From Armatimonadota bacterium (lineage in GTDB: Bacteria; Armatimonadota; UBA5829): 64,000 bases of DNA. Positions 2,064-60,043 of this stretch are shown here, piece by piece. The notes beneath the pieces are model-generated. The model worked only from the letters and a program-made list of their open reading frames with translations. It made no database searches and had not been told where the DNA came from. The stretch covers positions 28,208-92,207 of the forward strand of contig JBDKUO010000067.1 in assembly GCA_039679645.1 (NCBI GenBank), written 5' to 3'. The translations under genes and the position numbers were made by a program. Every line of letters begins with the position of its first letter. Positions within the stretch are counted from its first letter, which is position 1.

Positions 2064-2138
2064 CTGTCTACCTCGCTTTTGTGTGATTTGCCCCCACTTG
2101 ATATGTACTTCTGGGAATGGTGCAGTTGTCGAGTTTTT

Positions 2139-3610: not shown

Positions 3611-3661
3611 AGCGAAACCACGGGGATTCTCTTCCAGGCGCGCCATTTTACCCCGCACCAG

Positions 3662-5016: not shown

Positions 5017-5750
5017 TGCTGCTTCCAACTGCAAAGACGCCGCCAAAACCCAATCTGGCGGACCTGACGGTGTTATGTTACGGAGCCACGAAGATAGGCA
5101 AGAGCACATGGTGCTCTTATTCCGATAACGCGATCTTCCTATCGACCGAACCGGGTCTCAATTCCCTGGAAGTGTTCCAGGTCCCGATCCGGTCGTGGGA
5201 CGAGCTGCTCACAACCTGCGGCGAGATCGCCGAGGGCAACCATGAGTTCAAGACAGTCATCATCGACACCGTGGACAATGCCTATCGTATGTGCGCGGAC
5301 TACGTCTGCCGGAAGTTTAAGGTCGAGCACGAGTCCGACCTCGGTTACGGAAAGGGATTCTCGCTGACAAATAATGAATTTCAGCGAGTACTGAACAAGC
5401 TTGCATTCATGCCCTACGGCTTGTATCTCGTCTCGCACTCTCAAGAAGTAGAGATCGAGACGAGGACCGGCAAGTACAACAAGACCGTCCCCACATTGCC
5501 GGAGAAGGCACGGAAGATCGTGCTCGGCCTTGTCGACATGGTCCTCTTCTGCGACATCGAGGCCGTTACCGGGCCGGACAACAAGGTCGTGGGGCGGCGG
5601 GTCATGCGCACCAAGCCGAGCATCTATTATGAAGCCGGTGATCGCACCGGCAGGCTTCCCGATATCATCGACCTCGACTATGGCAAGTTCGTCGAGGCGT
5701 TCAATGCCACTGCAGGCGGCAAACAAGCTGCAAAGGAGAAGACAACATGA
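5016..5750 (+). CDS. AAA_24 / Sak4-like RecA-fold ATPase (phage recombination)
   Basis: Walker A CYGATKIGKST; hhhhD Walker B VIIDTVDN; size and neighbourhood (after Cas4-like nuclease) typical of Sak4 module. Confidence 0.7.
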   Translation: MLLPTAKTPPKPNLADLTVLCYGATKIGKSTWCSYSDNAIFLSTEPGLNSLEVFQVPIRSWDELLTTCGEIAEGNHEFKTVIIDTVDNAYRMCADYVCRKFKVEHESDLGYGKGFSLTNNEFQRVLNKLAFMPYGLYLVSHSQEVEIETRTGKYNKTVPTLPEKARKIVLGLVDMVLFCDIEAVTGPDNKVVGRRVMRTKPSIYYEAGDRTGRLPDIIDLDYGKFVEAFNATAGGKQAAKEKTT

Positions 5751-27900: not shown

Positions 27901-28772
27901 CCCTCGCTTACAAACTCATGAAACGCGGGATCATCGCGCAGGTCTCTATGGAATGCGACTACGAATCGGGCGAGTGTTCCGTCTGTGGCAAGAAGGTGAC
28001 AAACAAAAGCGACTACTGCATCCATCTCCGAAAATCCAAGGGCGGCGAGTATCAGGGTAAGCCGGTCTTCGAGATTTTGCACGGTGTCACATTTACTGGC
28101 CTTGGACTTTTGGATCGTAAGGGTGCGGATGAGAACGCACGCATAACACAAGTTGCCTCGGACATGACGGGGCACACAACTTCAGGAGGCGACTCAGTGG
28201 ACGATGATAAGAAAGACCAGTTGACAGACGAGCAGCGCGAAGAGGCTGCCAAGAAGAAGGACTCCGGCGGCGGGGGTGCTTCGATGGATGACAAGGCTCG
28301 GATAAAAGAGCTTGAAGACGAAAACAAGCAGCTCAAGCAGCAGGTTTCAGACATGCAGAAGCAGATTGCTGAACTTGAAGCCGAAAGCAAGGCTGTCGCA
28401 AACAAGTCTCGCGCCGCGAAACTCATAGACAAGCTCGAAAAGTCAGGCATGAGCTTCGCCTCTGACGATGAGCGCGAGAAGGAGCTGGGTCGCCTTTCTG
28501 AACTTTCGGACGATGCATTCGCTGCAACCGAAGCTGCATATGATCGTGCTATCAGCACAAAACCGGCTGATTCAAAGTCGTCTGAGGCAGACGGCGCGGG
28601 CGACAAAGGCAAATCTGAATCCAAATCGGATCAGACTGACAAGCAGATGCGGACTGACGCAGGTGTGCGCCCTCTTGATGTGGACGACAAAAAGACCAGC
28701 CTTGAGGACAAGCTGCGCGACGGGTTCATGGTCGCATATCGAGATCGCGTAGGCGCGGGTCAGAGCAAATAA
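24939..28772 (+). CDS. 1277-aa protein: two tandem Dam-like (D12 class) N6-adenine DNA methyltransferase domains plus C-terminal Cys-cluster, coiled-coil and acidic tail (protease/scaffold-like) region
   Basis: Domain 1: YIGSKQKLVDWI, DAFCGSA (motif I), YFDPPYATEF (motif IV). Domain 2: FMGNKYVMLGWI, DAFSGGA, YLDPPYITEF. C-terminus: SMECDYESGECSVCGKKV, coiled coil KELEDENKQLKQQVSDMQKQIAELEAE, acidic/lysine-rich tail. Sits between MuF and capsid genes where scaffold/protease is expected. Confidence 0.7.
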   Translation: MQLFATDLDRLAFLLETDASRHLELLLAQAAELITEELPEDKRPKYITNYIGSKQKLVDWIWKNTPEDVGSVLDAFCGSAVVAYMYKTKGLCVLANDRLHYSYHAARAIIENDSVRISQDELDGLLADNPKAGTFVRDNFKGLFFASGVHAIIDTIRANINKLDGFKKDIALFALGKTCLSGKGGFGHFSSSTNYGKFQDSPEEFRNRFADNIARINALIFNNGKECKAYRKDINDVLSDARVELAYFDPPYATEFSTTNYEKSYHFIEGLMTYWDGLEINTDSKTRHYETDHKSVTKANANEFFGTFLANARHIPNWLISYRDHAYPNESEMKGIISVNGMSSRMQSQKHRYSISSKYSENSDAVERLFICSRAKEMKQAASVRPACSQMQTQAEWDETANEIRYRVRDPEQFQPDSIRRKALEGVDGISIITGRLKEEFVPDGHDPKSMVLQSYRFAKKTDDNAYGWTMEKAKQWITEHELEASKAEVRIEDNMQALADAPFAESLDLLSCQAGTDDPVKVTGFMGNKYVMLGWIERQVPKDAKTVLDAFSGGANVAYHLKRRGMKVIANDLLLYPYHIARAVVENSHETLSNEDIERILAPNSNAGTFIVDNFHGYYYTKKVLAWLDQVWSNIQKLSGYKKDLALAALGNTVKAKSMFGQFHRSKINLKADMDADAGIKENQLVSIPVTHMVESFRRYASQLNKLVFDNGQECKAFCGDAVEAVRKYGADVLYLDPPYITEFSNNDYEFSLHFVEGLMNRWADKELLNDNRRSYKSRTHYDRDSIRSLIDNLASEARGKYETVIMSYRDRAFPTEKEIKDMFAQRFGHVRVRGMDVEYGIVLGKGSEGKTARELLFVASNSGRVPKSTAASLAANCHTSIPVEVAISGDSSLSASAVDINPNAGDPQFGFIMCRAGTNKNGDHFTADELASRYTTAINKKIDLKHSQDLTDIVGGIIASEFVEDETGGRVECAGELYVADSPTAALAYKLMKRGIIAQVSMECDYESGECSVCGKKVTNKSDYCIHLRKSKGGEYQGKPVFEILHGVTFTGLGLLDRKGADENARITQVASDMTGHTTSGGDSVDDDKKDQLTDEQREEAAKKKDSGGGGASMDDKARIKELEDENKQLKQQVSDMQKQIAELEAESKAVANKSRAAKLIDKLEKSGMSFASDDEREKELGRLSELSDDAFAATEAAYDRAISTKPADSKSSEADGAGDKGKSESKSDQTDKQMRTDAGVRPLDVDDKKTSLEDKLRDGFMVAYRDRVGAGQSK

Positions 28773-47146: not shown

Positions 47147-47685
47147 TGAAGCCATTTGCCGAGAGATTGTTGGAAATGCTGCCTGACATATATGCGGAAT
47201 GCGATACCTCCGGGGATTTAAAGGCGCTGCTTGCAGTAATAGGGCCAACACTTGATGAACTGAAATCCCGCATAGACGGCATTACCAGTCTTGCGTCACC
47301 TGTCGATTGTCTGCCGGATTTCCTGGCGTATCTTGCTGCCTTAATCGGTGCAACGTTTGACACGACGACGAGCCCGACGCCTCAGCGCAGGAGTATTCAG
47401 GAAGCCATAGAGAGATACAGGCGCACCGGCACTACAGCCGCGCTTGTCCGAGACCTTGCCAGGCTAGGCTGGGCAGGCGAAATAGTCGAGACTTACCATT
47501 CGGTTCTACGCCTGAATTACAACGCGAAACTCAATCACCAGAAACTGCCGGGCATAAAATACAACCACGGGATTTATGGAATTACTCAGCCACTGGAGGA
47601 TAGTGAGTTCCTGGAGATAGCCGCCAGGCACCAGCCGGCAGGAACAATTTGTTGGATCGAAGAGGAGGAGATTGAAATATCATGA
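47143..47685 (+). CDS. Tail protein I (P2 gpI-like)
   Basis: LLEMLPDIYAECDTSGDL...LPDFLAYLAALIG pattern; 180 aa; position. Confidence 0.55.
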   Translation: MMKPFAERLLEMLPDIYAECDTSGDLKALLAVIGPTLDELKSRIDGITSLASPVDCLPDFLAYLAALIGATFDTTTSPTPQRRSIQEAIERYRRTGTTAALVRDLARLGWAGEIVETYHSVLRLNYNAKLNHQKLPGIKYNHGIYGITQPLEDSEFLEIAARHQPAGTICWIEEEEIEIS

Positions 47686-49397
47686 CCGACAGTACATTCG
47701 ACGCGGCTAGAAACTACAAGAAAATCTGCTACAGGGTGGACAGGGACCTCTTGAATACCGAACTCAACGAAGCCCAAGACATAGCGGCTCACGAAAGAAT
47801 GGCCCTCCTCGATAAGATTCTAGCGCCGGGGACGATCCTTTCGGGCTTGGTGGGAACTGTAGCTGGCAGCGATGTGACAATTGCCGATGGTATCGTCTAT
47901 ATCGACGGCTGCGCTGTGAATGTTCCTGGCGCAGCGCTGTCGTTTCCAGCGTCCGGCGACTACATTATATATGTGGATGTGTTCCGCAGAGAGGTCACGG
48001 CATCAGAAGATGCGTCCCTCGTGAATCCGCTCACCGGAGAGCCGACAGCAGAACGAGAGAAATGGATCGCCGCGCTGCAGACACGCGATACGTCAGGTGA
48101 TCCGCTCCCAGAGGGAGCGCTGTCCAGAACAGTTGTGCCGGTGTACACCTTTGATGTCGACACAGGAGAACTTCGACCATATGTCTGCATCTCCAGTCAA
48201 GGCAGCGACATCCTTTCGATACTGGCGGATCACATCGGTCATGCCGGACTGGAACGCCACCCGGCTGTAAGTTCAGAATCCGCTGGTTTCATGACACCGA
48301 CCCAGCTTGCCGATCTTGAATCCAAGGCTGAGAATACCGACCTGACAGCCCTATCGAGCGCTCTGAACACACACAAATCATCATCCGATCACGACGGCAG
48401 GTATTTTACCGAGACCGAGTCCAATGCGAACTTCGCTCCGAAATCCCATGTCGGTTCGGGCGGCACAGCTCACTCGAATGCAACTACTTCAACTGCGGGA
48501 TTTATGGCACCTGCTGATAAGACTCAAATTGGCGACCACGAGACACGTATCGATACAATAGAGGCTGCACTGCCCGGAAAAGCTGATAATGCGGACGTGA
48601 CCGCTGTCTCCAATGCCTTGAGCGCACACAAATCGTCATCAGATCATGATGGCCGATATTACACAGAAACCGAATCCAATGCCAACTTTGCTCCACACTC
48701 ACACATCGGTTCCGGCGGCACGGCTCACTCAGATGCAACCACATCCGACGCTGGTTTTATGGCACCGGCGGACAAGACCCAGCTTGCAGATCATGAGACC
48801 AGGATAGACGCAGTTGAGGCTGCGCTCCCTGAGAAGGCCACAGAAGTTGAACTGCAGGTGCTTGCGACTGCATTTACCTGGCACAGGACATCTAATGACC
48901 ACGATGGGACATATTACCCTAAAACAGAGTCCAATGCCAGATATTCGCCCCTGCGCTACTTCCAGGACCAGATGAAATGGTACTGCGGATACAGCTATGA
49001 TGGCGTCAGTTTGTTGGAATATGGAGTAATGTCCGCGAATAACGGCATGATCTGGCAGGGCAAGTGCGACGCCAACTCCGAGCATAAATTAATGACTCAC
49101 CTGAAAGCTACGTCATACACGATAACAGCGCTTTTCGAGTTCTATCACATAACCGGCACCCTGACAATGGAAACCGGCAGCAGGGTAACCCTCGGTGACC
49201 CCGGCACGTATCCGCCGAAGGTTCCGGGAGGCAAAATATATCTGGTGCAAATCTATCCCGACAGCTACACAAATGCGATTATCCATGTGTCCGGATCGGG
49301 GGATGTAGGGTTCAGTCTGAATATTTTCCCGGGCGATAACCGCCAGCTTTGCCGTGCATTCGATCCCGGCCATGAAGACGACCAGTCGTATACATAG
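47682..49397 (+). CDS. Tail fibre protein with three tandem ~67-aa repeats
   Basis: Repeats SSDHDGRY(F/Y)TETESNANFAP(K/H)SH(V/I)GSGGTAHS(N/D)ATTS.AGFMAPADKTQ..DHETRID..EAALP x3 (approx nt 48370-48960). Confidence 0.65.
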   Translation: MTDSTFDAARNYKKICYRVDRDLLNTELNEAQDIAAHERMALLDKILAPGTILSGLVGTVAGSDVTIADGIVYIDGCAVNVPGAALSFPASGDYIIYVDVFRREVTASEDASLVNPLTGEPTAEREKWIAALQTRDTSGDPLPEGALSRTVVPVYTFDVDTGELRPYVCISSQGSDILSILADHIGHAGLERHPAVSSESAGFMTPTQLADLESKAENTDLTALSSALNTHKSSSDHDGRYFTETESNANFAPKSHVGSGGTAHSNATTSTAGFMAPADKTQIGDHETRIDTIEAALPGKADNADVTAVSNALSAHKSSSDHDGRYYTETESNANFAPHSHIGSGGTAHSDATTSDAGFMAPADKTQLADHETRIDAVEAALPEKATEVELQVLATAFTWHRTSNDHDGTYYPKTESNARYSPLRYFQDQMKWYCGYSYDGVSLLEYGVMSANNGMIWQGKCDANSEHKLMTHLKATSYTITALFEFYHITGTLTMETGSRVTLGDPGTYPPKVPGGKIYLVQIYPDSYTNAIIHVSGSGDVGFSLNIFPGDNRQLCRAFDPGHEDDQSYT

Positions 49398-49540
49398 AAT
49401 AACAAACACACTCTGACTGGATAATCCGCGTGTCAATACCAGTTTCTCGCTGAACACTCTCAATTGACTTGACATCCCTGCGTGTTCGAGGTAATTCATC
49501 ATTGGTGATGAACACTACCAGATCAATACGGAGGTATCAA

Positions 49541-50217
49541 GTGATAGATTTTCGTGAACTGAAATTCGGAGTGGAGATAGAGACTACCGGCAAGTCGCGC
49601 GGAGCCGTGGCTAAGGGGATCCAGTCCGTGGTCGGCGGCACCATTGAGCATACAGGTCAGCCCGCTGCCTACGATCCTCACACGGTAACAGATCCAAATA
49701 GCAGACAATGGAAAGTGGTTGCCGACGCGTCACTATCCGATGCACCTGCCAACCTTAGAGCTGAGATAGTAACGCCTATTCTTACATATCGGGACATACC
49801 TGTGCTGCAGGATGTTGTCAGAGCCGTGCGCAGAACAGGCGCGCAGGCCACACAGACCTGCGGGTGCCATATACTGTAGATGGTTCGCATTTCGATGGCC
49901 GTACCCTCGCCAACCTCATGAAGATCTTCTATAAGCAGCAGGAGCTTATCATCCAGGCACTCGGTGTTAGAGCGGACAGGCTGGCTAAATATACCAAGCG
50001 GATCGATCCTGACCTGATAAGGAGAATAGACTGCAAGCGCCCCAAGACGCTCGATGAGATGAATAAGCTGTGGTATGGCGCATTCAATTCCTCACCACAG
50101 CACTATGATAGCCAACGCTATTATGTTGCGGCTCGAATTATGTTGCGCCGGGCCGCGATTCGTGCGGCCCGACTGCGGATTGCGCTACATAATATATCAC
50201 CCTGCCGTATTTGGTAA
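49541..50217 (+). pseudogene. Amidoligase_2-like (glutamine synthetase-fold COOH-NH2 ligase) gene, frameshifted near 49864-49879 and C-terminally truncated by RIT insertion
   Basis: N-terminus VIDFRELKFGVEIETTGKSRG (FGxExE); ...TQTCGCHIL* then -1 frame continues VDGSHFDGRTL...; last ~36 codons are encoded by the RIT-1 terminal inverted repeat. Confidence 0.5.
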
Positions 50218-50266
50218 TGGAGCTTCGGATTGGTTCCGGGGCTTACATTAACCAAGAGGTGTTTCT

Positions 50267-51523
50267 ATGTTGGAATATTACTTTAGCGATCCCACTCGGC
50301 TGCGCCAGCTTCGTCGTGGGCCGCTCGTCCAGTATCTGGACGGCATGGCTGCCGAATTGCGACGGCACGGCTATCAGAAGACCACCGGAGTCAACATCCT
50401 GGGATTGGCCGGACAGTTCAGTCGGTTCCTTTCCACCTGCGGGATCTCCGATGCCAGCGAAATCAGCGAGGAACTGGGACAGAAGTTCGTTGATGAGGAA
50501 CTTGTGCCCATGGGAGTTTTTCGCGGAGCAGCCAATGCAATCGTCCACGTTCTCAGGTATCTCAGACAGTCCGGCATCATAGCAGAGGTCGAGAAACCGC
50601 ATGTAGATGACCCTTGCGCGGATATCATCAAGCGCTACATCACCTATCTACGCGATATTCGTGGTCTGAGCTTTGCTACCTGCGATGGCTACACACGATC
50701 CGTACGACGCTTCCTCGCTTTTCATATCGAGCGCCATAAGAAGTTGGAATTCTCGGCTCTCGATGGCCCCGAGGTACTCGACTATATAACCACTTGGGCA
50801 AACTACGCCTCCAGCCGGTCCTGGGTACACAACCTTGCAACCAACACACGCTCGTTCCTGGGATTCTTACGCTGGGAAAACCTCATTGACCGCGATCTTG
50901 AGCGTGTTGTGCCGTCACTACGCCGGTGGCGACTGGCCACGGTTCCCAGCCATCTACCTTGGGAACAGGTTCGCGAGATAATTGACGGCGTGAATGCCGC
51001 TTCGCCCGAAGGCATGCGCGACCGGGCTATTCTGCTCTTGCTTGCCACGCTTGGGCTGCGAAACTACGACGTGCGCACGATGGAATTCTCACACATCGAC
51101 TGGCGTGAAAGCGTGATTCGCCTGCCGAAAACCAAGAACTTGCGCGCTCGCGTTCTACCGATGTCGCAGGAGCTGGGCGAAGCCATTGCCGACTACATTC
51201 TCAATGGCCGCCCACACACCGATTTGCCCTTCGTATTTATCCGCCACAAGGCGCCTGTCAGTGCGTTCACCACATCCCCCGCCATAACGGGTATTGTGCA
51301 AAGACATGTAAAGCGTCTTGGTATTCCGACATGGGCCGGTCATCGCGGTTCTCACCTGCTGCGCCACAGCTTGGCGAGCAAGATGGTCAACTCAGGCTCT
51401 TCCATAAAGGGAGTCGCCGACATGCTCGGCCACGCCTGTATAGACACCACGGCCATATACACGAAAGTCGATACCGTTCACTTGATGGAGGTTGCATTGC
51501 CGCTACCCGGAGGAGTGAAATGA
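50267..51523 (+). CDS. Tyrosine recombinase RitA-like (element 1)
   Basis: 418 aa; RDRAILLLL, HLLRHSLASK, TAIYTKV catalytic motifs. Confidence 0.8.
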   Translation: MLEYYFSDPTRLRQLRRGPLVQYLDGMAAELRRHGYQKTTGVNILGLAGQFSRFLSTCGISDASEISEELGQKFVDEELVPMGVFRGAANAIVHVLRYLRQSGIIAEVEKPHVDDPCADIIKRYITYLRDIRGLSFATCDGYTRSVRRFLAFHIERHKKLEFSALDGPEVLDYITTWANYASSRSWVHNLATNTRSFLGFLRWENLIDRDLERVVPSLRRWRLATVPSHLPWEQVREIIDGVNAASPEGMRDRAILLLLATLGLRNYDVRTMEFSHIDWRESVIRLPKTKNLRARVLPMSQELGEAIADYILNGRPHTDLPFVFIRHKAPVSAFTTSPAITGIVQRHVKRLGIPTWAGHRGSHLLRHSLASKMVNSGSSIKGVADMLGHACIDTTAIYTKVDTVHLMEVALPLPGGVK

Positions 51524-52485
51524 GCAACTATTGCTTTCGAAGCATCTTTGCCGAATACCTGATAAGATACATCAACCTGCGGCGCAGCTTCGGTTTGAAG
51601 TTCGCCAGTCAGTCAGGCATCCTACATAAGTTCGACGGCTACGTTTATGACCTTAGCCACACTGGGCTGCTTACACAAGAGTTAGCGATTGGGTTTGCCA
51701 CTGCCAACCCGAATGTTACTGCTCAGGAATGCGCTCGTCGCTATGCTACCATACGTAACTTCTCGGACTTCCTTGCCACGTTCGAGCCGCAGACACCACT
51801 TCTGGATCCCAAGGCTCTGTATGCGCGGCGGGTGCGTCCGCCTGCACATATCTATTCGGAAGAAGAACTCGTTCGCCTGCTCGAACTTGCCAAGCGGATC
51901 GCGCCAAAGAATCCTATGAGAGGGTTTGCCTTACATGCAATGGTCGGTCTGGCCGCAGGAACCGGTCTGAGGATTAGCGAAGTGGTTGCTCTTGACCGTG
52001 CGGATGTGGACATGAAATCGGGTGTCATAATGGTGCGGCGCACGAAGTTTTTCAAGGACCGCCTGGTGCCGGTGCATTCAACTGTTCTGGCAGTTCTTAA
52101 TCAGTATGCTCGCCTGCGCGACGCGGCACATCCCCAGTCGCAGAGCCCGGCGTTCTTTCTTCACCAATGGGGACGACGCTTCTCGAAGCATACTCTGCAG
52201 ATGACCTACTGGGATCTTACTCGACGTGCAGGGTTGCGGGGTGACAGCGGAGACGGCCCCACATTCCATGATCTTCGCCACACCTTCGCTGTCAGGAGAT
52301 TGGCCGCATGGTATCGAGAAGGCAAGGATGTGAATGCCATGCTGCCCATGCTGGCGACATACATGGGCCACGCTCATTACACCGATACCGCCTACTATAT
52401 TACGGCGATCCCCGAACTGATGGAACTTGCTGCCCAGCGCGCACGAACAAGCCAAACAAGTTCGGACAAGGAGGCAACTCGATGA
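51520..52485 (+). CDS. Tyrosine recombinase RitB-like (element 1)
   Basis: 321 aa; ATGA overlap with previous; HDLRHTFAV, TAYYITA. Confidence 0.8.
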   Translation: MSNYCFRSIFAEYLIRYINLRRSFGLKFASQSGILHKFDGYVYDLSHTGLLTQELAIGFATANPNVTAQECARRYATIRNFSDFLATFEPQTPLLDPKALYARRVRPPAHIYSEEELVRLLELAKRIAPKNPMRGFALHAMVGLAAGTGLRISEVVALDRADVDMKSGVIMVRRTKFFKDRLVPVHSTVLAVLNQYARLRDAAHPQSQSPAFFLHQWGRRFSKHTLQMTYWDLTRRAGLRGDSGDGPTFHDLRHTFAVRRLAAWYREGKDVNAMLPMLATYMGHAHYTDTAYYITAIPELMELAAQRARTSQTSSDKEATR

Positions 52486-53492
52486 GCGCAAAGCCTCAAA
52501 CTCTAGCAACCCTCATCGAAAGCTACTTCAAACAGCGACTGATAGCTCAACGGCACTCAAGCCGAGAGACGATTGCCTCTTACCGGGAGAGTTTACGGCT
52601 TCTTGCCGTATTTGCATCCGAGTGTTTACATACGGCTCCAGAGAAGCTGACCATTGAGAATCTCGACCGAGAGGTAGTCCTTGCTTTCCTAGATTACCTT
52701 GAACAGACACGCTGCAACTGTATTCGCACCCGCAACAGTCGTCTAGCCGCAATCCGCTCGTTCCTTAAGTATGTGGCGTATTTGGACCCAACTGCAATGG
52801 GCGTGGTTCAGCGAGTATTGGCAATACCGAGTAAGAGAACGGTCAAGCCGATACTTGGATATCTTACCCGAGAAGAACTCGATGTTCTTCTCAGCGTTCC
52901 GGACCGCAACAGCAGACAAGGACGCCGTGACTATGCGCTGTTGCTCTTTATGGCTCGCACCGGCGCGCGAGTATCGGAAGCTGTTGGGGTCAACGCGAGT
53001 GACCTGCGTTTGAATCATCCATGTCAGGTGCTTCTGCGTGGAAAAGGCGGAAAGGAGCGTGTTACGCCGATGAAATCTGACATTTCGGATATCTTGAACA
53101 CACTTTGCGGGGAAATGAATATTGCGCCAAACACAAATGCCGCTGTCTTCGTCAGCATGGCCGGCAAACGGCTCACGCGTCACGGAGTCACACATTTGAT
53201 GCGGCGCACCGTACCCATAGCGGTTGCGAACATGCCGATACTGGCAAGGAAGACGATCACGCCTCACACCCTTCGTCATACTACAGCAATGCACCTGCTG
53301 CAGGATGGAATCGATCTGAATATGATTCGTTCATGGCTGGGACATGTCAGCCTCGACACGACTCATCAGTACGTTGAGGCTGACGTGGAGATGAAACGTT
53401 GTATATTAGAGCAGTGCGGGGTAGTTGAAGCCGGGCAGATGCGCTACCAACCAACGGACAAATTGTTGGCACTACTGGAGAGCCTGTGCTGA
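52482..53492 (+). CDS. Tyrosine recombinase RitC-like (element 1)
   Basis: 336 aa; ATGA overlap; HTLRHTTAMHL, THQYVEAD. Confidence 0.8.
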   Translation: MSAKPQTLATLIESYFKQRLIAQRHSSRETIASYRESLRLLAVFASECLHTAPEKLTIENLDREVVLAFLDYLEQTRCNCIRTRNSRLAAIRSFLKYVAYLDPTAMGVVQRVLAIPSKRTVKPILGYLTREELDVLLSVPDRNSRQGRRDYALLLFMARTGARVSEAVGVNASDLRLNHPCQVLLRGKGGKERVTPMKSDISDILNTLCGEMNIAPNTNAAVFVSMAGKRLTRHGVTHLMRRTVPIAVANMPILARKTITPHTLRHTTAMHLLQDGIDLNMIRSWLGHVSLDTTHQYVEADVEMKRCILEQCGVVEAGQMRYQPTDKLLALLESLC

Positions 53493-53569
53493 TTATTATG
53501 TGACGCAAATCGAGTGCCGGGCCGCACGAATCGCGGCCCGGCGCAACATAATTCGAGCCGCAACATAAT

Positions 53570-53599
53570 AGCGTTTATGTAGCGCGCTACATAAACGCT
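53570..53599. repeat. Perfect 30-bp palindrome agcgtttatgtagcgcgctacataaacgct at outer edge of RIT-1; related palindrome ttatgtggcgcgccacataa at 53859-53879
   Basis: Read directly; both lie in the 310-bp spacer between the two RIT elements. Confidence 0.8.
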
Positions 53600-54112
53600 A
53601 CTGTGTTTTGAACCTTTCCTCTATGTTCTATAGAGGCAGCATAGAGATGAGGGCTGCGAATTCCACACTGCACGCTGGAGTAATCCGAGGTTATGTGACA
53701 TTCGTGCTTGCACTCGCCGCGAAGGCTCTAAACAATCGCTGCGCATCCGGACGACCCAGAGAATACAATCCCCAGAGTGCTAAGTATGACTTTCGGGTCT
53801 TTGCATGCATCAATCTCGGGCTTATAGGCGATGAGTTCAAAAATGTGAGAAAGCACCTGTTATGTGGCGCGCCACATAGCAAGTGTTATGCGTCGCGTGC
53901 GATTATGTGGCGTCGGGTGCTTTTTCAGGCTCCCCGACGCCGGTTTTGCGATACATAACAATCCCTACCAGATGATTCACGCTTGGTTCGGCAAATAAGT
54001 CAAGTGCAATCTGAAAGGGATGGGGCTGTATATGAAAGCTTATGCAGAGCCGTATTCCTTGTGGAGGCTCGGATTCGCCCGGGTCTTACATTGTTTCTCT
54101 AGGAGACAAAAC

Positions 54113-55357
54113 ATGCTGGAGTATTACTTCAAATCACCAATCAGAATTCGTCAGTTGCGTTGCGGCCCCATCGCACCTTATCTGGACGGACTTGCTGCGC
54201 GCCTGCATCAGCGGGGTTACTGCTATGGTCAGGCTCACACCATTTTGGGACTTGCTGGCGACTTCAGTCGCTACCTGTCACTAATAGGCATCGGCGACGT
54301 TCACAAGATCACAGAGGACCTTGCCCATCGCTTTTCCGGTGATTTTGCCTCGCACGGTGACTACGAGAAGACCGGTAATATGTTGACCCATCTATTGAAC
54401 CACCTGCGTGACGAGGGTATTGTGCCGGTTCTGGAACAAGAGAGTTCTGCGGATGATCCATTTACAGACATCATCTCACGATATGAGGATTACTTGGCAA
54501 ATGTGCGCGGAGTCGTCGTTAAGACCAGGATATACAGTCGGTCCGCCAGGCGTTTTCTGGATTTCCATCTCAGGCGCCATGGCTGCTTGGATCTTAGAAA
54601 AGTGGACGGTCCACAGATATTGGATTACATTGCCTACTGGGCAAATGTCTCTCAAAGTCGGACCTGGGGACAAATGCTGACCACATGTACCCGGTCATTC
54701 CTGCGGTTTTTGCGCTGGGAAAGCATTGTCGAACAAGACCTAGACCGAGTCGTACCATCCATATTTCGCTACCGACTAGACACGATTCCCAAACACCTGC
54801 CCTGGCAACAGGTGCGAGCGTTAATCGACGGTATGGAGACGCTTTCGCCGCGGGGAAGGCGTGATAAGGCAATCCTGCTGCTACTTGCGACACTCGGACT
54901 CCGCTGTATGGACGTTCGAGATCTCCAACTGGACAATATCATATGGCGCAAGTCCGAGATACACCTGCCGAAGACTAAAAGCATGCGCGCTCGTGTTCTG
55001 CCGCTTACTCAGGAAGTCGGTGATGCCCTGACCGACTATGTCATCCATGGGCGTCCCGCACACAATTCGCGGTATGTATTTCTTACTCACAATGCCCCCA
55101 TAGTGCCCATATCTTGTGAGGCAGTCACGGCCATTGTGTCAAGGAACATCAAACGCGCAGGCATACCAGCCCCTCATTATGGCGCCCACATGCTTAGACA
55201 CAGTCTTGCGGCCAAGATGGTGAATGAGTCAAGACCAATCAAGGAGATAGCAGACATGCTTGGGCACGTCAGCATCGACACTACGGCCATTTATGCCAAG
55301 GTTGACACTACTCATCTGGCGACCGTGGCTCTGCCTTTTCCAGGAGGTGCAAGATGA
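54113..55357 (+). CDS. Tyrosine recombinase RitA-like (element 2)
   Basis: Paralog of 50267-51523 (MLEYYF.. N-terminus, HMLRHSLAAK, TAIYAKV). Confidence 0.8.
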   Translation: MLEYYFKSPIRIRQLRCGPIAPYLDGLAARLHQRGYCYGQAHTILGLAGDFSRYLSLIGIGDVHKITEDLAHRFSGDFASHGDYEKTGNMLTHLLNHLRDEGIVPVLEQESSADDPFTDIISRYEDYLANVRGVVVKTRIYSRSARRFLDFHLRRHGCLDLRKVDGPQILDYIAYWANVSQSRTWGQMLTTCTRSFLRFLRWESIVEQDLDRVVPSIFRYRLDTIPKHLPWQQVRALIDGMETLSPRGRRDKAILLLLATLGLRCMDVRDLQLDNIIWRKSEIHLPKTKSMRARVLPLTQEVGDALTDYVIHGRPAHNSRYVFLTHNAPIVPISCEAVTAIVSRNIKRAGIPAPHYGAHMLRHSLAAKMVNESRPIKEIADMLGHVSIDTTAIYAKVDTTHLATVALPFPGGAR

Positions 55358-56319
55358 GCTACAAATGTCGCAGTTTCCTTGCAGCTTATCTAGAATCCTA
55401 CATCAACCTGCGGCGCAAGCTCGGATGCCAGTTCAGGCAGCAGGCAAATACTCTGCACGAGTTCGACCGATACCTGTGTAAGCACGAATCAGTCGCTAAG
55501 CTGACGCAGGATTTGGCTGTGGATTTCGCCACGTACCGCCCTGAGCTAAGTTCGAAGCATTGTGCTAATCGCTACAACTTTGTACGCAACTTCTCCAGGT
55601 ATCTGGCTGCATTTGAGCCTGAGACTCCACCTTTGAGTCCGAAAGTCCTTTGTCCTCAAAACACTCAGCCTCCGGCCCACATCTATACCGAGTCTGAACT
55701 CGCGCTGCTTCTTCAGTCGACCATGAAATTGACTCCCCAGCACCCAATGCGAGGGCTGACGTTCAGAACAATTATTGGCCTCGCGGCCAGCACGGGGCTG
55801 CGAAACGTGGAGGTAGTCAATCTTGACAAGGCAGACGTGGATTTGGGGTCTGGAGTTCTCCTGGTGCGCGGGACCAAATTCCACAAAGAACGAATTGTGC
55901 CGGTCCATCCTACCACGCTTGTTGAACTGACGAGCTATGCTCGTCTGCGTGATGTTTCGTTTCCCGAGCCGCAAACCCCTGCCTTTTTCCTTAATATGAG
56001 AGGCTGTCGTATTCAGACCCACACAATACAGTGCACATTCTGGAGGCTTACCCAGATCGCCGGACTGCGAGATGAAAGCGGCAAAGGTCCGAGATTTCAC
56101 GACTTGCGCCACACATTCGCGGTTAAAAGGATGGCGAGATGGTATCGCGAGGGAGTTGACGTCCAAGGATTGCTACCTCTGCTTGCCACCTACATGGGAC
56201 ATGTCCACTACAGCAATACCGCATATTATATCACCGCCGTCCCCGAACTGATGGAGCTTGCTACTCAGAGATATCAGACCGCACAGAATACAAGCGGCGA
56301 TGTGGAGGCAAGCAAATGA
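55354..56319 (+). CDS. Tyrosine recombinase RitB-like (element 2)
   Basis: Paralog of 51520-52485; ATGA overlap. Confidence 0.8.
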   Translation: MSYKCRSFLAAYLESYINLRRKLGCQFRQQANTLHEFDRYLCKHESVAKLTQDLAVDFATYRPELSSKHCANRYNFVRNFSRYLAAFEPETPPLSPKVLCPQNTQPPAHIYTESELALLLQSTMKLTPQHPMRGLTFRTIIGLAASTGLRNVEVVNLDKADVDLGSGVLLVRGTKFHKERIVPVHPTTLVELTSYARLRDVSFPEPQTPAFFLNMRGCRIQTHTIQCTFWRLTQIAGLRDESGKGPRFHDLRHTFAVKRMARWYREGVDVQGLLPLLATYMGHVHYSNTAYYITAVPELMELATQRYQTAQNTSGDVEASK

Positions 56320-57323
56320 GCAAAGTTTCTCCGACACTAGGCGACATGCTCGAAAGCTACTTTCGCCGTCGACTGATAACACAGCAACGAGCCAGCATCG
56401 AGACTATTCGCGGGTATCGTGACGCTCTTCGACTGCTAGTAATTTTTGTCGCCGAGCAGCTACAGACGGCTCCCGAGCGCTTGAGTATTCAAGACCTGGA
56501 CCGCGACGTGATTCTGGCATTCCTCGACCACTTGGAGGATTTTCGGCATAATTGCGTACGCACGCGCAATAACAGGCTGGCCGCAATCCGAGCGTTCATG
56601 CAGTATGTGGCCTACATGGACCCGGGAGCGCTGGGTGTGGTACAGCGGGTACTAGCCATTCCCAATAAGAAGTACGTCAAACCAATTCTTGGCTATCTCA
56701 CCCGCGAAGAACTGGACGTTCTGCTCAATGTGCCGGATCAGGCAACAAGACAGGGGCGGCGGGATCATGCCTTGCTTCTGTTTTTCGCGCGGACTGGCGC
56801 ACGTGTTTCAGAGGCTGTCAGGGTGAATGCGGTGGATATCTGCTTGAACTCACCTTGCCAGGTTCTGCTGCACGGAAAGGGTATGCGGGACAGGTCGACT
56901 CCAGTTGCTACAGACTTGGTGGCCGCGCTTCGCTCATTGTACGAGGAACGCCGTATTACCACAAGCGACAATGTGCCGGTATTCGTCAGTGCGACCGGAC
57001 AGAGGCTGACCAGATACGGGGTCACGCATATGATCCGACGGATGGTCGCCACAGCGGCTGAGCGGAATTCAAGCATTGCCGGACGCAAGATAACGCCACA
57101 TACTTTGAGGCACACGACGGCCATGCATATGCTCCAGTCAGGTGTAGATTTGAACATGATCCGATGCTGGCTTGGACACGTCAGCCTCGATACCACCCAC
57201 CATTACATAGAAGCCGATGTTGAAATGAAACGTCGAGCACTGGAACAAAGCGGCGTGGTTGCACCACGGCAGGCGCGCTACCAGCAGACGGACAGGATAC
57301 TGACAATACTGGAAAACCTGTGA
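56316..57323 (+). CDS. Tyrosine recombinase RitC-like (element 2)
   Basis: Paralog of 52482-53492; ATGA overlap. Confidence 0.8.
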   Translation: MSKVSPTLGDMLESYFRRRLITQQRASIETIRGYRDALRLLVIFVAEQLQTAPERLSIQDLDRDVILAFLDHLEDFRHNCVRTRNNRLAAIRAFMQYVAYMDPGALGVVQRVLAIPNKKYVKPILGYLTREELDVLLNVPDQATRQGRRDHALLLFFARTGARVSEAVRVNAVDICLNSPCQVLLHGKGMRDRSTPVATDLVAALRSLYEERRITTSDNVPVFVSATGQRLTRYGVTHMIRRMVATAAERNSSIAGRKITPHTLRHTTAMHMLQSGVDLNMIRCWLGHVSLDTTHHYIEADVEMKRRALEQSGVVAPRQARYQQTDRILTILENL

Positions 57324-57478
57324 GGATTATGTAGCGCAAAACCGGCGTCGGGGAGCCTGAAAAAGCACCCGACGCCACATAATCGCACGCGACGCATAAC
57401 ATCTGCTTGCTAACCTCCAGGGCGACTCGGCATTCAAGTATGGCCGCAAATCCAAAAAAGCTAAGGAGGCGGCAGTCA

Positions 57479-57694
57479 ATGCATAACATCAGGGTCCTAG
57501 TTCCGAAAGCAGTTATGGACGGCATGCTGGCTATTCGTAGCTCAGGCAGAACTAATATGTTCGACTTATCTGAAGTAGTGCGCATCGCGGTTGAACTCGA
57601 TTATATAGAAACTGCGATGCGGATAGAGAACAATCGCGCCAAATTCTGCCTTGGGATATTTCACGGATTCAAAGTAATGGAAGGAGAGCGCTGA
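57479..57694 (+). CDS. Small hypothetical protein upstream of amidotransferase (ORF open from 57407)
   Basis: 72-95 aa ORF; could alternatively be displaced C-terminal remnant of the disrupted operon. Confidence 0.25.
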   Translation: MHNIRVLVPKAVMDGMLAIRSSGRTNMFDLSEVVRIAVELDYIETAMRIENNRAKFCLGIFHGFKVMEGER

Positions 57695-58488
57695 TGTGTG
57701 GACAGACTGGGGTCATCTATGGACCAAAAAAGAGACAGTCGGAGGAGCAGACATATCTGAAGTGGCTTTTTATACATTTGCTGCTATTGAGTGAGAGGCG
57801 AGGACCTTTCGCGACCGGTCTTGCCTGGCTGAAAAAAGATGGCAGTCACTGCATTTTCAAACGTCCGATGCGCGCAGTTGAGTTTGTGAAGATGAAACAG
57901 TTTGTTGATGCGATAGCCTATGTTGACAACTCAACGACCTGGCTTGCCGGACATACCCGCTGGCCTACACGCGGTTCGATAGAGAGAATTGAAAATGCAC
58001 ATCCCATTCGCTCGGGATATGTCTTGGGCACTCATAACGGCACTATTGCAAATGCAGACGAATTGTTCAAAGAGTTTGACCTGCCAAGGTTTGCTGAGGT
58101 AGACAGCGAGATAATCTTCAGAATGACCGATGCTGATATGAAGAACGGTCGTATCGATACCGATGTGCTCAAGAGCCGACTCGCCCTTTGCAGTGGGCAG
58201 ATAAGCGCGGTAATGGCATCTAAGCTCGATCCCCAAATTGTAGTCGTGGTAAAGGGCAATATGCCCCTGGAATTGAGATATCATCCGGAGCACAGGGTAG
58301 TAGTATATGCCTCAGATTCCACGTATCTCAATACCGCGCTTTCTCGTGAGAAGGGCTGGCGACGGATAGCAGCGAAACCTATGAGCATAATGACTTTTCA
58401 CATTGACAACCTGCCGAATTTTGAAAGCGTGCCGTTTCGGTTAGCCGGAGTGTCTGTTGCTAACTTCGAGCGTTTTACAGGTCGGTAG
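57694..58488 (+). CDS. Class II (Ntn) glutamine amidotransferase domain protein
   Basis: N-terminal MCGQ (Cys2 nucleophile after Met removal), GHTRWPTRGS (HxRxxTxG), HNGTIAN; 264 aa. Confidence 0.7.
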   Translation: MCGQTGVIYGPKKRQSEEQTYLKWLFIHLLLLSERRGPFATGLAWLKKDGSHCIFKRPMRAVEFVKMKQFVDAIAYVDNSTTWLAGHTRWPTRGSIERIENAHPIRSGYVLGTHNGTIANADELFKEFDLPRFAEVDSEIIFRMTDADMKNGRIDTDVLKSRLALCSGQISAVMASKLDPQIVVVVKGNMPLELRYHPEHRVVVYASDSTYLNTALSREKGWRRIAAKPMSIMTFHIDNLPNFESVPFRLAGVSVANFERFTGR

Positions 58489-58586
58489 GCTCGAAAATAT
58501 GAATATTGTCTGTGAGTCCCCAGGAGAAATCCGTATGAATCTGTCTGCCTTCTGGGGACAAGAATTTATCACAGAGAGTGATACTT

Positions 58587-59672
58587 CTACAGTCCGAGAG
58601 CATCCGCGCTGTTTTCTTCGAACAGACGGCCCAGACGGATATATCTCTTCAATGAACTGATGGATTTATGCCCGGTCTGTTGAGCAATAATGTGCTCAGC
58701 CACACCGGCTCTGCTTGCCTGAGTGCAGTGACCGGACCTCAGTGAGTGCCCGCTGTATTTCTCAGGGTCCAGCCCTGCTGCATTTGCAGCTCTTTTGACA
58801 ACCGTCCCTATCGCTCTTCTTGAAAGCCTGTCGGACACTAGATTGTTATATCTATCGAGTCCTCGGAAGATTGCACCCTCTGTAATCTGAGATATCTCCA
58901 ACCAGCGCTCGAGTGCAGCTACCGGGCAGGTATCGAAATTCTTGCCACGGGGGATACCCACTAATCGACCCTCTCCCTGCTGGTCGGTTTTACTTCGCCT
59001 CAGAAGAATAACAATACCTTCATCCCGATAGTTGATGTCAGCGACATTCAATCCAACGATTTCTGAGCGCCTGAATGCTCCGGCGAAACCTATGAGGATT
59101 ATTGCTTTGTCACGTATACCGAGAAATGTATCCGGCAGTGCCTCTACCATCCGCTTGATATCTTCCGACAGCAGAGCATCCACCGGCTTTGGCGGGCTGC
59201 CTATCTTCCTCGTCATTCCGTGCAGCAATTCTTTTATTGCCGGGTGACTTGTCGGGGTTGGATATCCGGCCTCACGATGAGCTGCGGCTATTGCGGCACA
59301 GTGTCTGCGGATAGTTGTAATGCGGAAGTTCTTCATCGCTAGTGATGTGAAGTAACAGCCGACAACATCCGGTGATGAAGGCATATAAGGAAGAGCGTGA
59401 CTTATACACCACCGCTCAAAGCCCTTCCAGTCACGCGCATATATCTCTTTCGTGGAATCGGCAATGGTGGTTGTGAGGAAGTTTTGAGCGTTTTCGAGGA
59501 GTTCAAGAAGCTCGGAATCAGCCCCCTCCGCAGCTTCCTGGAACACAATATTTCTGGTAGTCAGTGTAGCATGAGAATCTGTCATTTGCAAGCATTTTCT
59601 TCGCATTTCGGCAATTTTTCGGCCCGATAGTGCGATGAAAGGAGTTGCCGTGACCCTGAAGCATAAACGCAA
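58587..59672 (-). CDS. Tyrosine recombinase / phage integrase (likely start at 59585)
   Basis: RRSEIVGLNV, GHSLRSGHCTQASRAG, GHKSISSLKRYIR catalytic motifs. Confidence 0.8.
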   Translation of the reverse strand: MRLCFRVTATPFIALSGRKIAEMRRKCLQMTDSHATLTTRNIVFQEAAEGADSELLELLENAQNFLTTTIADSTKEIYARDWKGFERWCISHALPYMPSSPDVVGCYFTSLAMKNFRITTIRRHCAAIAAAHREAGYPTPTSHPAIKELLHGMTRKIGSPPKPVDALLSEDIKRMVEALPDTFLGIRDKAIILIGFAGAFRRSEIVGLNVADINYRDEGIVILLRRSKTDQQGEGRLVGIPRGKNFDTCPVAALERWLEISQITEGAIFRGLDRYNNLVSDRLSRRAIGTVVKRAANAAGLDPEKYSGHSLRSGHCTQASRAGVAEHIIAQQTGHKSISSLKRYIRLGRLFEENSADALGL

Positions 59673-59797: not shown

Positions 59798-60043
59798 GTG
59801 AAGTTATATCGTCTGGTTGCAGTGATTCTGCTGGGTGGGCTTATCCTCGGCGCCGTAGGATATTGCTTGTGCAGCAGTATTGTTCCAATTCAGACACCGG
59901 CTTACATCGGAAATGTGCGGACCGGTATCTTTCATCGCAGGACATGCAGCTATCTGCCACATGAAAAGAACAGGTCGTATTTCGAGTCCAGAGAGGAGGC
60001 GATCGATGCAGGATACAGACCGTGCCGGAAATGCAGGCCGTAG
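59798..60043 (+). CDS. Membrane-anchored Ada-like zinc-binding domain protein
   Basis: N-terminal TM LYRLVAVILLGGLILGAVGYCLC; C-terminal TGIFHRRTCSYL...SREEAIDAGYRPCRKCRP closely matches Ada N-terminal Zn-binding motif. Confidence 0.55.
   Translation: MKLYRLVAVILLGGLILGAVGYCLCSSIVPIQTPAYIGNVRTGIFHRRTCSYLPHEKNRSYFESREEAIDAGYRPCRKCRP

Follow-up and report, generated by a model that had tools for sequence, protein, structure and literature searches.

A prophage amidoligase-DUF5049-glutamine amidotransferase operon broken by two RIT elements and a 1-nt deletion in an Armatimonadota genome

What might an amidoligase and a glutamine amidotransferase (GATase) do when encoded between the tail fibre and integrase genes of a prophage, and what has become of a copy in which two RIT elements are lodged? 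We address this in a 64,000-nt stretch of DNA (the window) from an Armatimonadota metagenome-assembled genome (MAG), which holds a myovirus-type prophage. The last structural gene ahead of the cassette is a tail fibre gene with a DUF4815 N-terminal domain (47682 to 49397, forward strand; PF16075, 57.1 bits; phrog tail-fibre matches), and the prophage end is marked by a tyrosine integrase gene on the reverse strand (58587 to 59672; PF00589, phrog_1), with equal position and orientation in the related loci L003, L008, and L014.

The amidoligase gene is a recent pseudogene

The amidoligase gene starts at a GTG at 49541, 143 nt 3′ of the fibre stop and behind a ribosome-binding site (GGAGG, 49530 to 49534), which agrees with the start just downstream of the fibre gene given in the first-pass annotation. 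It runs in four forward-strand pieces, all located by tblastn with the stitched protein described below: piece A (49541 to 49873, codons and tblastn residues 1 to 111, ending in TCGCHI), piece B (49876 to 50120, codons 113 to 194, ending in HYDSQRY), piece C (53601 to 53859, codons 195 to 280, CVLNLSSMFYRGSIEMR...NVRKHL), which stands between the two RITs and is colinear with intact homologues, and piece D (57406 to 57486, codons 281 to 306 and the stop, LANLQGDSAFKYGRKSKKAKEAAVNA), which was recognized by frame translation and alignment to proteins P0121 to P0127. By HMM search, pieces A to C match Amidoligase_2 (PF12224; cutoff, 22 bits) at profile positions 2 to 115, 117 to 206, and 209 to 244, with 86.9, 43.5, and 16.2 bits, respectively. 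When both RITs are excised in silico and the missing base is restored, a 306-aa ORF is obtained with all junctions in frame, and this stitched ORF scores 184.9 bits against PF12224 (profile positions 2 to 244 of 245) and 232 bits against phrog_2443, with 77 to 78% identity to the intact proteins P0121 and P0122 across 99 to 100% of the length. These matches of fragments and stitched ORF confirm the earlier Amidoligase_2 assignment. The true C-terminal 112 codons are those at 53601 to 53859 and 57406 to 57486, and what had been taken for the last ~36 codons, in the inverted repeat of RIT-1, is a read-through tail.

The frame break reported earlier is a 1-nt deletion at 49874/49875 (forward strand), where codon 112, encoding the second His of the CGxHxH motif, reads C-T and homologues have CAT or CAC. 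At this site the window has TGCCATATAC-TGTAGATGG and the intact homologue L008 has TGCCATATACATGTGGACGG, and Logan assemblies made from two different runs, SRR15035648 and SRR15035647, contain the identical 112-aa truncated product. The empty-site DNA of L008 and L010, relatives without RIT insertions, fixes the deletion and both RIT insertion points. Both RITs lie inside the amidoligase ORF, 260 bp apart, so that the gene is in four pieces; the earlier picture of a gene pair split by RITs was right in naming two elements and wrong in placing them between the genes.

The amidoligase family invariants are E12, E14, E75, H110, H112, E209, and R211, and an intact ORF with the ExE ... CGxHxH ... 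ExR arrangement is not present in the window copy, in which the His112 codon is broken and the other invariants are kept. The window amidoligase is therefore a recent pseudogene with three independent lesions, namely, two different RITs and a 1-nt deletion. We consider its inactivation recent because the fragments are without further lesion and the invariant residues are otherwise kept, which upholds the earlier view of recent inactivation by transposition and adds a frameshift to it. The fold is of the GS/GCL type, with glutathione-pathway and glutamine-synthetase enzymes as its nearest neighbors (AlphaFold model of the intact P0122, pLDDT 88), and both glutamate-cysteine ligase and YbdK outscore PafA in this comparison.

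Two different RIT elements in one gene

RIT-1 (50121 to 53594, forward strand, 3474 bp) carries ritA (50267 to 51523), ritB (51520 to 52485), and ritC (52482 to 53492), with Phage_integrase matches in all three ORFs. It has inverted-repeat arms of 58 nt at 100% (50114 to 50171 and 53518 to 53575), a small palindrome, TTATGTAGCG/CGCTACATAA, at its right end (53576 to 53594), and, from junction analysis, the flanking repeat ACGCTA (50115 to 50120 and 53595 to 53600). RIT-2 (53860 to 57399, forward strand, 3540 bp) carries ritA (54113 to 55357), ritB (55354 to 56319), and ritC (56316 to 57323), with arms of 81 nt at 96% (53878 to 53958 and 57327 to 57407), the small palindrome at its left end (53860 to 53878), and the flanks CACCTG (53854 to 53859) and CATCTG (57400 to 57405). 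The rit genes overlap by 4 nt (51520 to 51523, 52482 to 52485, 55354 to 55357, and 56316 to 56319), PF00589 is matched by every rit ORF tested, and all six recombinase ORFs are intact. The three proteins are putative members of the RitA, RitB, and RitC subfamilies (Famint1, 5, and 2), and the A, B, and C recombinases are mutually only 19 to 24% identical. Since RitA, RitB, and RitC of RIT-2 share only 53.5, 56.8, and 64.3% identity with those of RIT-1, the two are different elements.

Both show the RIT hallmarks of a three-gene trio with short overlaps, an inverted-repeat unit of ~3.5 kb, and a palindrome at one end, in keeping with the earlier identification of two RIT elements. Gene order and protein sizes (418/321/336 aa) agree with the published trio of 315 to 410 aa (PMC10214605). 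The amidoligase frame is restored exactly when each RIT is taken out along with one of its two 6-bp repeat copies, giving the predicted rejoined sequences ...CAACGCTACTGTG... and ...CACCTGCTTGCT.... We also observe that the 6-bp flanking repeat of each RIT is encoded by the element itself as well, and that the in silico circle junction of each is a long palindrome.

Upstream region

A -35-like hexamer, TTGACA, is read at 49469 to 49474 (forward strand), not at 49471 to 49476 as annotated before, and a TTGAY block is kept at the matching place in relatives of several phyla. The TAATTC proposed as its partner agrees with TATAAT at only 2 of 6 positions, and a consensus promoter scan did not call the TTGACA/TAATTC pair because of this poor -10. 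The sequence thus makes the putative sigma-70 promoter upstream of the amidoligase only half convincing, its -10 being noncanonical. Comparison with relatives reveals a conserved block in the leader, TAATTCAT (their RTTCAT block), at 49492 to 49512 on the forward strand, running into the dyad TTCATCA-TTGG-TGATGAA (49495 to 49512). Over the leader, 30 nt are identical to L008 and L009, with coding DNA being ~75% identical, and the TTGAY-N17-RTTCAT layout and the dyad recur across phyla. The leader block had no Rfam match, and RNAalifold returned no structure for it.

DUF5049, the glutamine amidotransferase, and the missing GGACT

Downstream of RIT-2, the forward strand encodes an intact 71-aa DUF5049 protein (57479 to 57694; PF16468, 43.7 bits; phrog_8677) and an intact stand-alone class-II (Ntn) GATase domain of 264 aa (57694 to 58488). 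DUF5049 overlaps both of its neighbors, its ATG with the stop of the amidoligase and its TGA with the ATG of the GATase. DUF5049 proteins have variable ends (GER, GGKS, CADK, and others) and an internal conserved core (SG.TNM.D ... W ... Y ... GF); a search across homologues for a conserved C terminus or a terminal Gln, Glu, or GG found none.

The earlier Ntn/class-II assignment of the GATase holds, with a PF13522 (GATase_6) score of 45.7 bits (cutoff, 27 bits) and an MCGQ start that places a Cys right behind the initiator Met. Alignment to the E. coli GlmS glutaminase domain (1xff) shows Cys1, HTRW.T.G, HNG, and E.D.E to be conserved, and the latter three are invariant in 23 homologues. From established GlmS knowledge, we take the Arg of HTRW, the Asn-Gly, and the Asp of E.D.E to serve in glutamine binding and as oxyanion residues, as in enzymes of the GlmS/PurF type. 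Judged by this alignment, the GATase retains the GlmS residues by which free glutamine is bound at its alpha-amino and alpha-carboxylate groups. That it is coupled to the amidoligase as a synthase partner is suggested by the conserved operon.

In a set of 80 related prophage loci drawn from many phyla, the order DUF4815 tail fibre ... amidoligase-DUF5049-GATase-GGACT is nearly invariant. In 63/67 loci with enough sequence, an uninterrupted amidoligase immediately precedes the GATase, with DUF5049 alone between them; DUF5049 is found between the two in 73/79 and has the stop/start overlap in 75/78. GGACT is present in all 68 loci with enough downstream sequence, and the DUF4815 fibre is located at most 9.5 kb upstream of the cassette in 43/51. 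Loci L003 to L005, L008, and L010 read amidoligase-DUF5049-GATase-GGACT(-HTH)-integrase. The amidoligase-DUF5049-GATase operon is part of a widespread, uncharacterised phage gene cassette, for which a PADLOC run gave no match. The pair described in the first-pass annotation does form one operon in relatives, with the overlooked DUF5049 gene between its members, and what was taken for a two-gene system has four genes there.

In the window, GATase and integrase are separated by a 98-nt spacer (58489 to 58586), where relatives have GGACT (PF06094, 51.9 bits in L008) and often also an HTH_3 gene; both are absent here, and a similarity search found neither anywhere in the 64,000 nt. The GGACT loss may have occurred before, and independently of, the amidoligase lesions. 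No ATP-grasp ligase or second amidoligase was found among the called genes of L003, L008, and L006 or the window ORFs.

Proposed function and alternative explanations

We consider it highly probable that this locus is a prophage amidoligase-DUF5049-GATase operon without GGACT, killed by RITs and a frameshift, whose intact form would be a glutamine-dependent ligase moron module. We infer that the intact cassette would work as a carboxylate-amine ligase module that depends on glutamine and is driven by ATP, of the known phage amidoligase/GAT-II/GGCT type. The GATase would bind free L-glutamine and yield ammonia or a gamma-glutamyl-enzyme intermediate, and the amidoligase, which shares its fold with glutamate-cysteine ligase and glutamine synthetase, would activate a (gamma-)glutamyl-type carboxylate at the expense of ATP and join it to the GATase ammonia or to an amine. 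Encoded between these two and translationally coupled to them, DUF5049 is probably a bridging subunit. GGACT would turn the product over, from gamma-glutamyl-amines to 5-oxoproline and amine, a step with which the cassette could run a gamma-glutamyl cycle instead of an amidation. Its own conserved upstream control region and its location at the integrase end of the prophage lead us to regard the intact cassette as a putative moron or lysogenic-conversion module, akin to the predicted envelope-modifying cassettes of lytic podophages.

A different role, raised in the first-pass annotation, would be for the pair to tag tail-fibre or capsid proteins with peptides or otherwise modify them; such a role would be analogous to pupylation. 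We regard this as quite improbable: DUF5049, the sole small-protein candidate, has a variable C terminus without terminal Gln, Glu, or GG, the GATase holds the residues for both alpha groups of free glutamine, PafA scores below glutamate-cysteine ligase and YbdK, upstream of the cassette is a control region of its own, and in Heliusvirales and Taranis phages the amidoligase adjoins terminase or regulatory genes, not tail genes. An auxiliary metabolic role, in which the cassette would enhance the nitrogen, glutamate, or glutathione metabolism of the host, is unlikely too. Such a role has been proposed for Phage-ZRK32 in a study (PMC10945688) that counts amidoligase, GATase, GGCT, and glutathione synthase among phage auxiliary metabolic genes and describes effects on growth in the presence of nitrate or ammonium, and the nearest folds of the amidoligase fit it; the study offers no enzymology, however, glutathione synthase is absent here, the net chemistry of GATase, ligase, and GGACT at face value uses up ATP and glutamine, and the cassette is kept across physiologically very different hosts, including anaerobic Desulfobacterota and Acidobacteriota.

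The lesions themselves could be read in other ways. If the RITs were regulated intervening elements, site-specific excision would rejoin the amidoligase as a reversible switch, like the skin or nifD element, and the exact frame after removal, the six intact recombinase ORFs, and further RIT-type elements breaking the amidoligase of L088 and the integrase of L006 speak for this. Yet the 1-nt deletion, present in two runs, would keep the amidoligase dead even after excision, GGACT is lost, the amidoligase is uninterrupted in 63/67 relatives, and unrelated IS elements have struck other relatives, consistent with ordinary decay, which makes a switch highly improbable. An assembly or sequencing artefact behind the frame break or the RIT arrangement would be conceivable in a MAG, and short-read contigs do end at the RIT inverted repeats. 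We rate its probability as close to negligible, since the truncated product is shared by both Logan assemblies, the deletion is outside any homopolymer, the RIT junctions are precise, with 6-bp repeats and the gene rejoined in frame, and both outer junctions of the MAG are matched by Logan contig ends.

Comparison with known systems

The phiEco32-, LUZ24-, PaP3-, tf-, and RIO-1-type podophages likewise bring together PF12224, PF13522, and an AIG2/GGACT-type cyclotransferase, and in PMC5498523 and PMC10580990 this amidoligase/GAT-II/GGCT cassette figures as a prediction only, credited to Iyer et al. 2009 and Hardies et al. 2013. Relative to the cassettes as outlined there, which include an ATP-grasp ligase, the one described here occurs in temperate myovirus-type prophages between tail fibre and integrase, has a fixed four-gene order including DUF5049, and is without a second amidoligase or an ATP-grasp ligase; the GATase shares only 25 to 31% identity with those of the podophages, and the window copy is a pseudogene without GGACT. 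The amidoligase sequence had no detectable match in the PDB; glutamate-cysteine ligase/YbdK-type ligases and glutamine synthetase (2gwc, 1tt4, and 8oow) are 10 to 15% identical to it, and at ~310 aa it is much smaller than these enzymes. The MurT/GatD peptidoglycan amidotransferase (PMC3267633) offers an analogy, not a homology, in that a stand-alone glutaminase and a separate ATP-dependent ligase are encoded together and amidate a glutamate carboxylate; the folds differ, with a Mur ligase (MurT) and a class-I GATase (GatD) there and a GS/GCL-like ligase and a class-II Ntn GATase here. Unlike PafA/Dop-Pup, the locus has no Pup-like tag.

With respect to the insertions, RIT elements of Cupriavidus metallidurans CH34 and others (PMC3414803, PMC10214605) have the same trio, 4-nt overlaps, length of ~3.5 kb, inverted repeats, and end palindrome, whereas here the host belongs to the Armatimonadota and two dissimilar RITs occupy a single 0.9-kb gene. 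Comparison with intact homologues of this target gene places each insertion point at single-base resolution, a point listed as not tested in that literature. [quoted passage not shown]

Reconstruction of the interrupted amidoligase gene

The window holds, as a pseudogenised copy, a known type of phage accessory cassette, in which genes for an amidoligase (Amidoligase_2, PF12224), a DUF5049 protein, a class-II glutamine amidotransferase (GATase) and a GGACT protein follow one another. ORF listing together with a Pfam scan reveals that the PF12224 profile is tiled consecutively by three ORF fragments, at 49469-49879 (profile positions 2-115), 49864-50217 (117-206) and 53608-53958 (209-244), the last of which lies between the recombinase-in-trio elements RIT-1 (50121-53594) and RIT-2 (53860-57399). 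Frame translation at the junctions has the amidoligase reading continue beyond RIT-1 as ...RYCVLNLSSMFYRGSIEMR... and, in frame beyond RIT-2, as ...LANLQGDSAFKYGRKSKKAKEAAVNA, ending at a stop codon. Stitching together 49541-49873, one restored base, 49875-50121, 53602-53859 and 57406-57486 yields a 306-aa ORF with no further lesion, matching PF12224 over positions 2-244 of 245 (184.9 bits) and phrog_2443 'amidoligase' at 232 bits. This reconstructed protein is colinear with its intact homologues P0121 and P0122 (77-78% identity, 99-100% of length) and, at 33-40% identity, with phage amidoligases too; a sequence search against the PDB returned nothing meaningful for either the amidoligase or DUF5049.

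When the empty sites of both elements are read from the DNA of intact homologues, RIT-1 is placed after Tyr194 and RIT-2 after Leu280, and therefore the last ~36 codons, which the first-pass annotation had attributed to the RIT-1 repeat, are only the read-through tail of the broken ORF. The protein families named in that annotation are borne out by Pfam scans (PF12224 for the amidoligase, GATase_6 for its partner), and its two RIT elements and frame break do exist, as seen from Pfam scans, inverted repeats and homologue DNA. It had the RITs merely separating the amidoligase from the GATase, an anatomy that the third amidoligase fragment between them shows to be incomplete, so that the pair was rightly identified and mis-drawn.

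The reading frame is broken where an A has dropped out of a CAT/CAC His codon (the related prophage locus L008 has TGCCATATACATGTGGACGG, whereas the window has TGCCATATAC-TGTAGATGG), and this codon specifies the second His in the invariant CGxHxH motif. At first pass a read error had been named as something to rule out here; an assembly artefact is very unlikely, as the site is not a homopolymer and the Logan assemblies of two different runs (SRR15035648, SRR15035647) yield an identical truncated 112-aa product. In each of them the contig ends within the left inverted repeat of RIT-1, and a third Logan contig starts within the right repeat of RIT-2 and runs through DUF5049, GATase and integrase. 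A programmed frameshift at 49864-49879 was ruled out, since there is no slippery heptamer and the homologues are uninterrupted there.

Organisation and spread of the cassette

The amidoligase stop codon (57484-57486) overlaps the ATG (57479) of the gene for the 71-aa DUF5049 protein, and the TGA of that gene overlaps the ATG of the GATase ORF (57694-58488, beginning MCGQ), which matches GATase_6 and whose product has a 100% identical counterpart in an Armatimonadota MAG. The intact order in homologue loci is a DUF4815 tail fibre, zero to two small genes, Amidoligase_2 (~312 aa), DUF5049, GATase_6, GGACT and sometimes HTH_3, with an integrase on the opposite strand closing the region. With one genome per species scanned, prophages of no fewer than 258 species-level genomes, spread over about a dozen phyla, carry the cassette, in every case at their tail-fibre/integrase end. 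Cultivable hosts with the cassette include Desulfosarcina, Desulfobulbus, Dichelobacter nodosus and Ectothiorhodospira.

Synteny was counted by tblastn over the best 80 loci of these 258 relatives, the denominators being loci with enough sequence. The amidoligase lies directly upstream of the GATase in 63/67 loci, DUF5049 sits between the two in 73/79, GGACT follows downstream in 68/68, and a DUF4815 fibre is present within 9.5 kb upstream in 43/51. These counts answer the concern that amidoligase and GATase might never be adjacent in related phages, and speak for a real functional unit. In a Bryobacterales genome (CBDFIS010000006.1) we observe at least four separate fibre-amidoligase-DUF5049-GATase-GGACT prophage modules (L017, L023, L026 and L028). 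A 490-aa amidoligase-DUF5049 fusion, P0217, was discounted as Rosetta-stone evidence: it comes from one 1.9-kb contig, and its linker reads like read-through of the normal gene overlap. The cassette offers a clean, compact gene set with which to settle by experiment the product of phage amidoligase/GATase pairs, a matter under discussion since 2009, to which the enzymes of the window add little themselves because this copy is dead.

Decay of the cassette and state of the prophage

Among the loci compared, the window alone is missing GGACT (68/68 others have it), and the stop codons of GATase and integrase are only 98 nt (58489-58586) apart. GGACT or HTH similarity was found nowhere in the 64-kb window, and both GGACT and HTH_3 are present in close relatives. 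The 58489-58586 spacer holds an inverted repeat, CCCCAGGAG...CTTCTGGGG. Elsewhere, 4/67 loci depart from the rule that the amidoligase directly precedes the GATase. In L080 (6450-9100) the amidoligase and DUF5049 are parted by an IS21-type IstA/IstB pair, in L088 (2252-6766) the tail-fibre region holds two IS4-type DDE transposase copies, and in L076 and L078 the region upstream of the GATase is replaced; it is therefore not uncommon for the cassette to decay in resident prophages.

The remaining prophage looks intact, with long ORFs for exonuclease, helicase, primase, terminase, portal and major head protein, as well as for sheath, tube, tape measure and baseplate. The window DUF5049 (57479-57694) has Arg at position 48, where at least 90% of relatives have Trp, and Phe at position 56 where relatives have Tyr, substitutions that may point to selection having relaxed once the amidoligase died. 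Within the prophage, a low-GC stretch (45-49%) carries on the opposite strand (12276-15098, minus) a gene that looks like defence-type cargo; its 940-aa product begins with a DUF4062 domain and weakly matches NACHT/STAND NTPases. Between the head-morphogenesis and major-capsid genes lies a 1277-aa DNA methyltransferase (24939-28772), with an N-terminal D12-class N6-adenine methyltransferase domain and a C-terminal 750 aa matching phrog_27806. Next after the integrase, in the window (59798-60043) as well as in L008 (4492-4725) and L006 (6363-6539), comes a small gene with an Ada_Zn_binding domain; just past it, at ~60000, G+C falls from ~50% to 42%, probably marking the prophage/host boundary.

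Anatomy and possible movement of the RIT elements

Each RIT consists of three tyrosine-recombinase genes, ritA, ritB and ritC, between terminal inverted repeats of 58 nt (100% identical) in RIT-1 and 81 nt (96%) in RIT-2, and all six Rit ORFs are intact, with 4-nt overlaps. The two share 53.5% (RitA), 56.8% (RitB) and 64.3% (RitC) identity and are, judged by their sequences, independent insertions of different elements. RIT-1 is flanked by the hexamer ACGCTA (50115-50120 and 53595-53600), RIT-2 by CACCTG (53854-53859) and CATCTG (57400-57405), that is CAYCTG, and a RIT in the Armatimonadota relative L006 by ACGTAT on both sides (~1615-1620 and 5124-5129). This L006 element (1545-5130) splits the integrase gene of its prophage at the 3' end, between the codons for ..KKYV and RLGRLF... 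Each element also contains the reverse complement of its flanking hexamer, alongside a short palindrome, TTATGTnGCG|CGCnACATAA. Joining the right end, the hexamer and the left end in silico produces a long palindrome, in which complementary positions over the first 60 nt per arm of the junction number 60/60 for RIT-1, 57/60 for RIT-2 and 52/60 for the L006 element; its centre falls on the ritC side for both RIT-1 and L006 and on the ritA side for RIT-2.

A fourth, degraded RIT-like end of the same architecture is present in the acidobacteriotal locus L088 (8529-9135), adjoining the amidoligase codons for RWFEATLH, 17 codons from the RIT-1 site, in an amidoligase that is truncated; its left junction was not found in this region, which is rearranged by IS4-type elements. 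Other copies of RIT-1 were sought with RitC, and the search returned only a 3.4-kb interior contig, because assemblies break at inverted repeats. RIT-type elements have entered the amidoligase gene three times, in two phyla, and the adjacent integrase gene once; more tentatively than the model below, this prophage cassette may be a preferred target for them.

Ricker et al. 2013 (Plasmid), the main RIT reference, may already cover part of RIT movement; other RIT papers state target specificity and movement to be untested (PMC10214605, PMC3414803). We propose a model, to which we give an even chance of being right, in which a tyrosine recombinase would integrate the element through crossing over inside a 6-bp spacer. 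Once excised, the circle would carry a long palindromic junction with two mirror-image core sites, ACATAA-N6-TTATGT, either of which could recombine with a target holding the same hexamer, which would explain the 6-bp direct repeat, the inverted internal copy, and the palindrome lying at the ritC or the ritA end. The predicted circle junctions are ...GCGCTACATAA-ACGCTA-TTATGTTGCGG... for RIT-1 and ...GACGCATAA-CAYCTG-TTATGTGGCG... for RIT-2, and the predicted empty sites in the amidoligase gene ...CCAACGCTACTGTGTT... and ...AAGCACCTGCTTGCTAAC...; all copies of one RIT should share a flanking hexamer that is the reverse complement of the internal one. Since the amidoligase gene is known in uninterrupted form, the two different RITs within it amount to a natural experiment, from which one can read the points of insertion, the 6-bp repeats and the circle junctions to be expected. 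The by-products of the analysis are a sharply defined, widespread four-gene cassette for experiment and a base-level insertion anatomy for RITs.

The leader of the amidoligase gene

Of the sigma-70-like promoter placed ahead of the amidoligase at first pass, the TTGACA and the 17-nt spacer exist, the former at 49469-49474, 2 nt off the position first assigned; the -10 element, TAATTC, is poor, agreeing with TATAAT at 2/6 positions, and a consensus promoter scan did not report the site. The 30-nt leader TTCGAGGTAATTCATCATTGGTGATGAACA is identical in L008 and L009, whereas the coding DNA is only ~75% identical, and Acidobacteriota, Desulfobacterota and others (L005-L090) again show, ahead of the amidoligase, the arrangement TTGAY-N17-RTTCAT with a dyad after it. 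Such conservation across phyla makes a dedicated control region likely, with a plain sigma-70 promoter as a mere candidate. The dyad reads TTCATCA-TTGG-TGATGAA in the window (region 49469-49512) and GAAC-N4-GTTC in L005, L012, L014, L015 and L027, the latter looking like a Gram-positive-type LexA (Cheo) box. A structured RNA or riboswitch was rejected: RNAalifold gave 0 pairs over 37 sequences, and Rfam yielded no family, only a sub-threshold snoRNA match.

Putative activity of the intact cassette and comparison with other phages

The GATase aligns to the glutaminase domain of GlmS (1xff) and keeps Cys1, HTRW.T.G, HNG and E.D.E, all invariant in 23 homologues. In GlmS these residues provide the nucleophile, the contacts to the carboxylate and amino groups of glutamine, and the oxyanion hole, and given their conservation a free-glutamine glutaminase is the best reading of the GATase. 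From the residues and the translational coupling we infer that the module would act as a two-component glutamine-dependent, ATP-driven carboxylate-amine ligase, with DUF5049 as a putative accessory or bridging subunit and GGACT as an enzyme that would be able to cleave gamma-glutamyl-amines. A homologue search with the 71-aa DUF5049, limited by its word index, gave the self match only. Across its relatives, DUF5049 has an internal conserved core, a C-terminus that is not conserved and, in most lineages, an added N-terminal domain of ~100 aa; a Pup-like tag is therefore not supported, and we rejected it. Defence-system membership was likewise rejected, as PADLOC gave no match for amidoligase, DUF5049, GATase or GGACT. 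The literature, which offers no enzymology, presents such cassettes as predicted modules for cell-wall modification or superinfection exclusion, or as auxiliary metabolic genes (PMC5498523, PMC10580990, PMC10945688).

The suggestion that the pair places a peptide tag on tail or capsid proteins keeps its positional part, as the genes do stand beside the fibre gene in this lineage, but loses ground on the lack of a tag-like C-terminus in DUF5049 and on comparison with other phage families. In Heliusvirales the amidoligase adjoins GGCT near the terminase, in FP_Taranis it is found among regulatory genes, and in podophages the amidoligase/GATase pair is located in the early region; the gene order in these families therefore argues that the tail-fibre link is a positional feature of the present lineage and not functional evidence.
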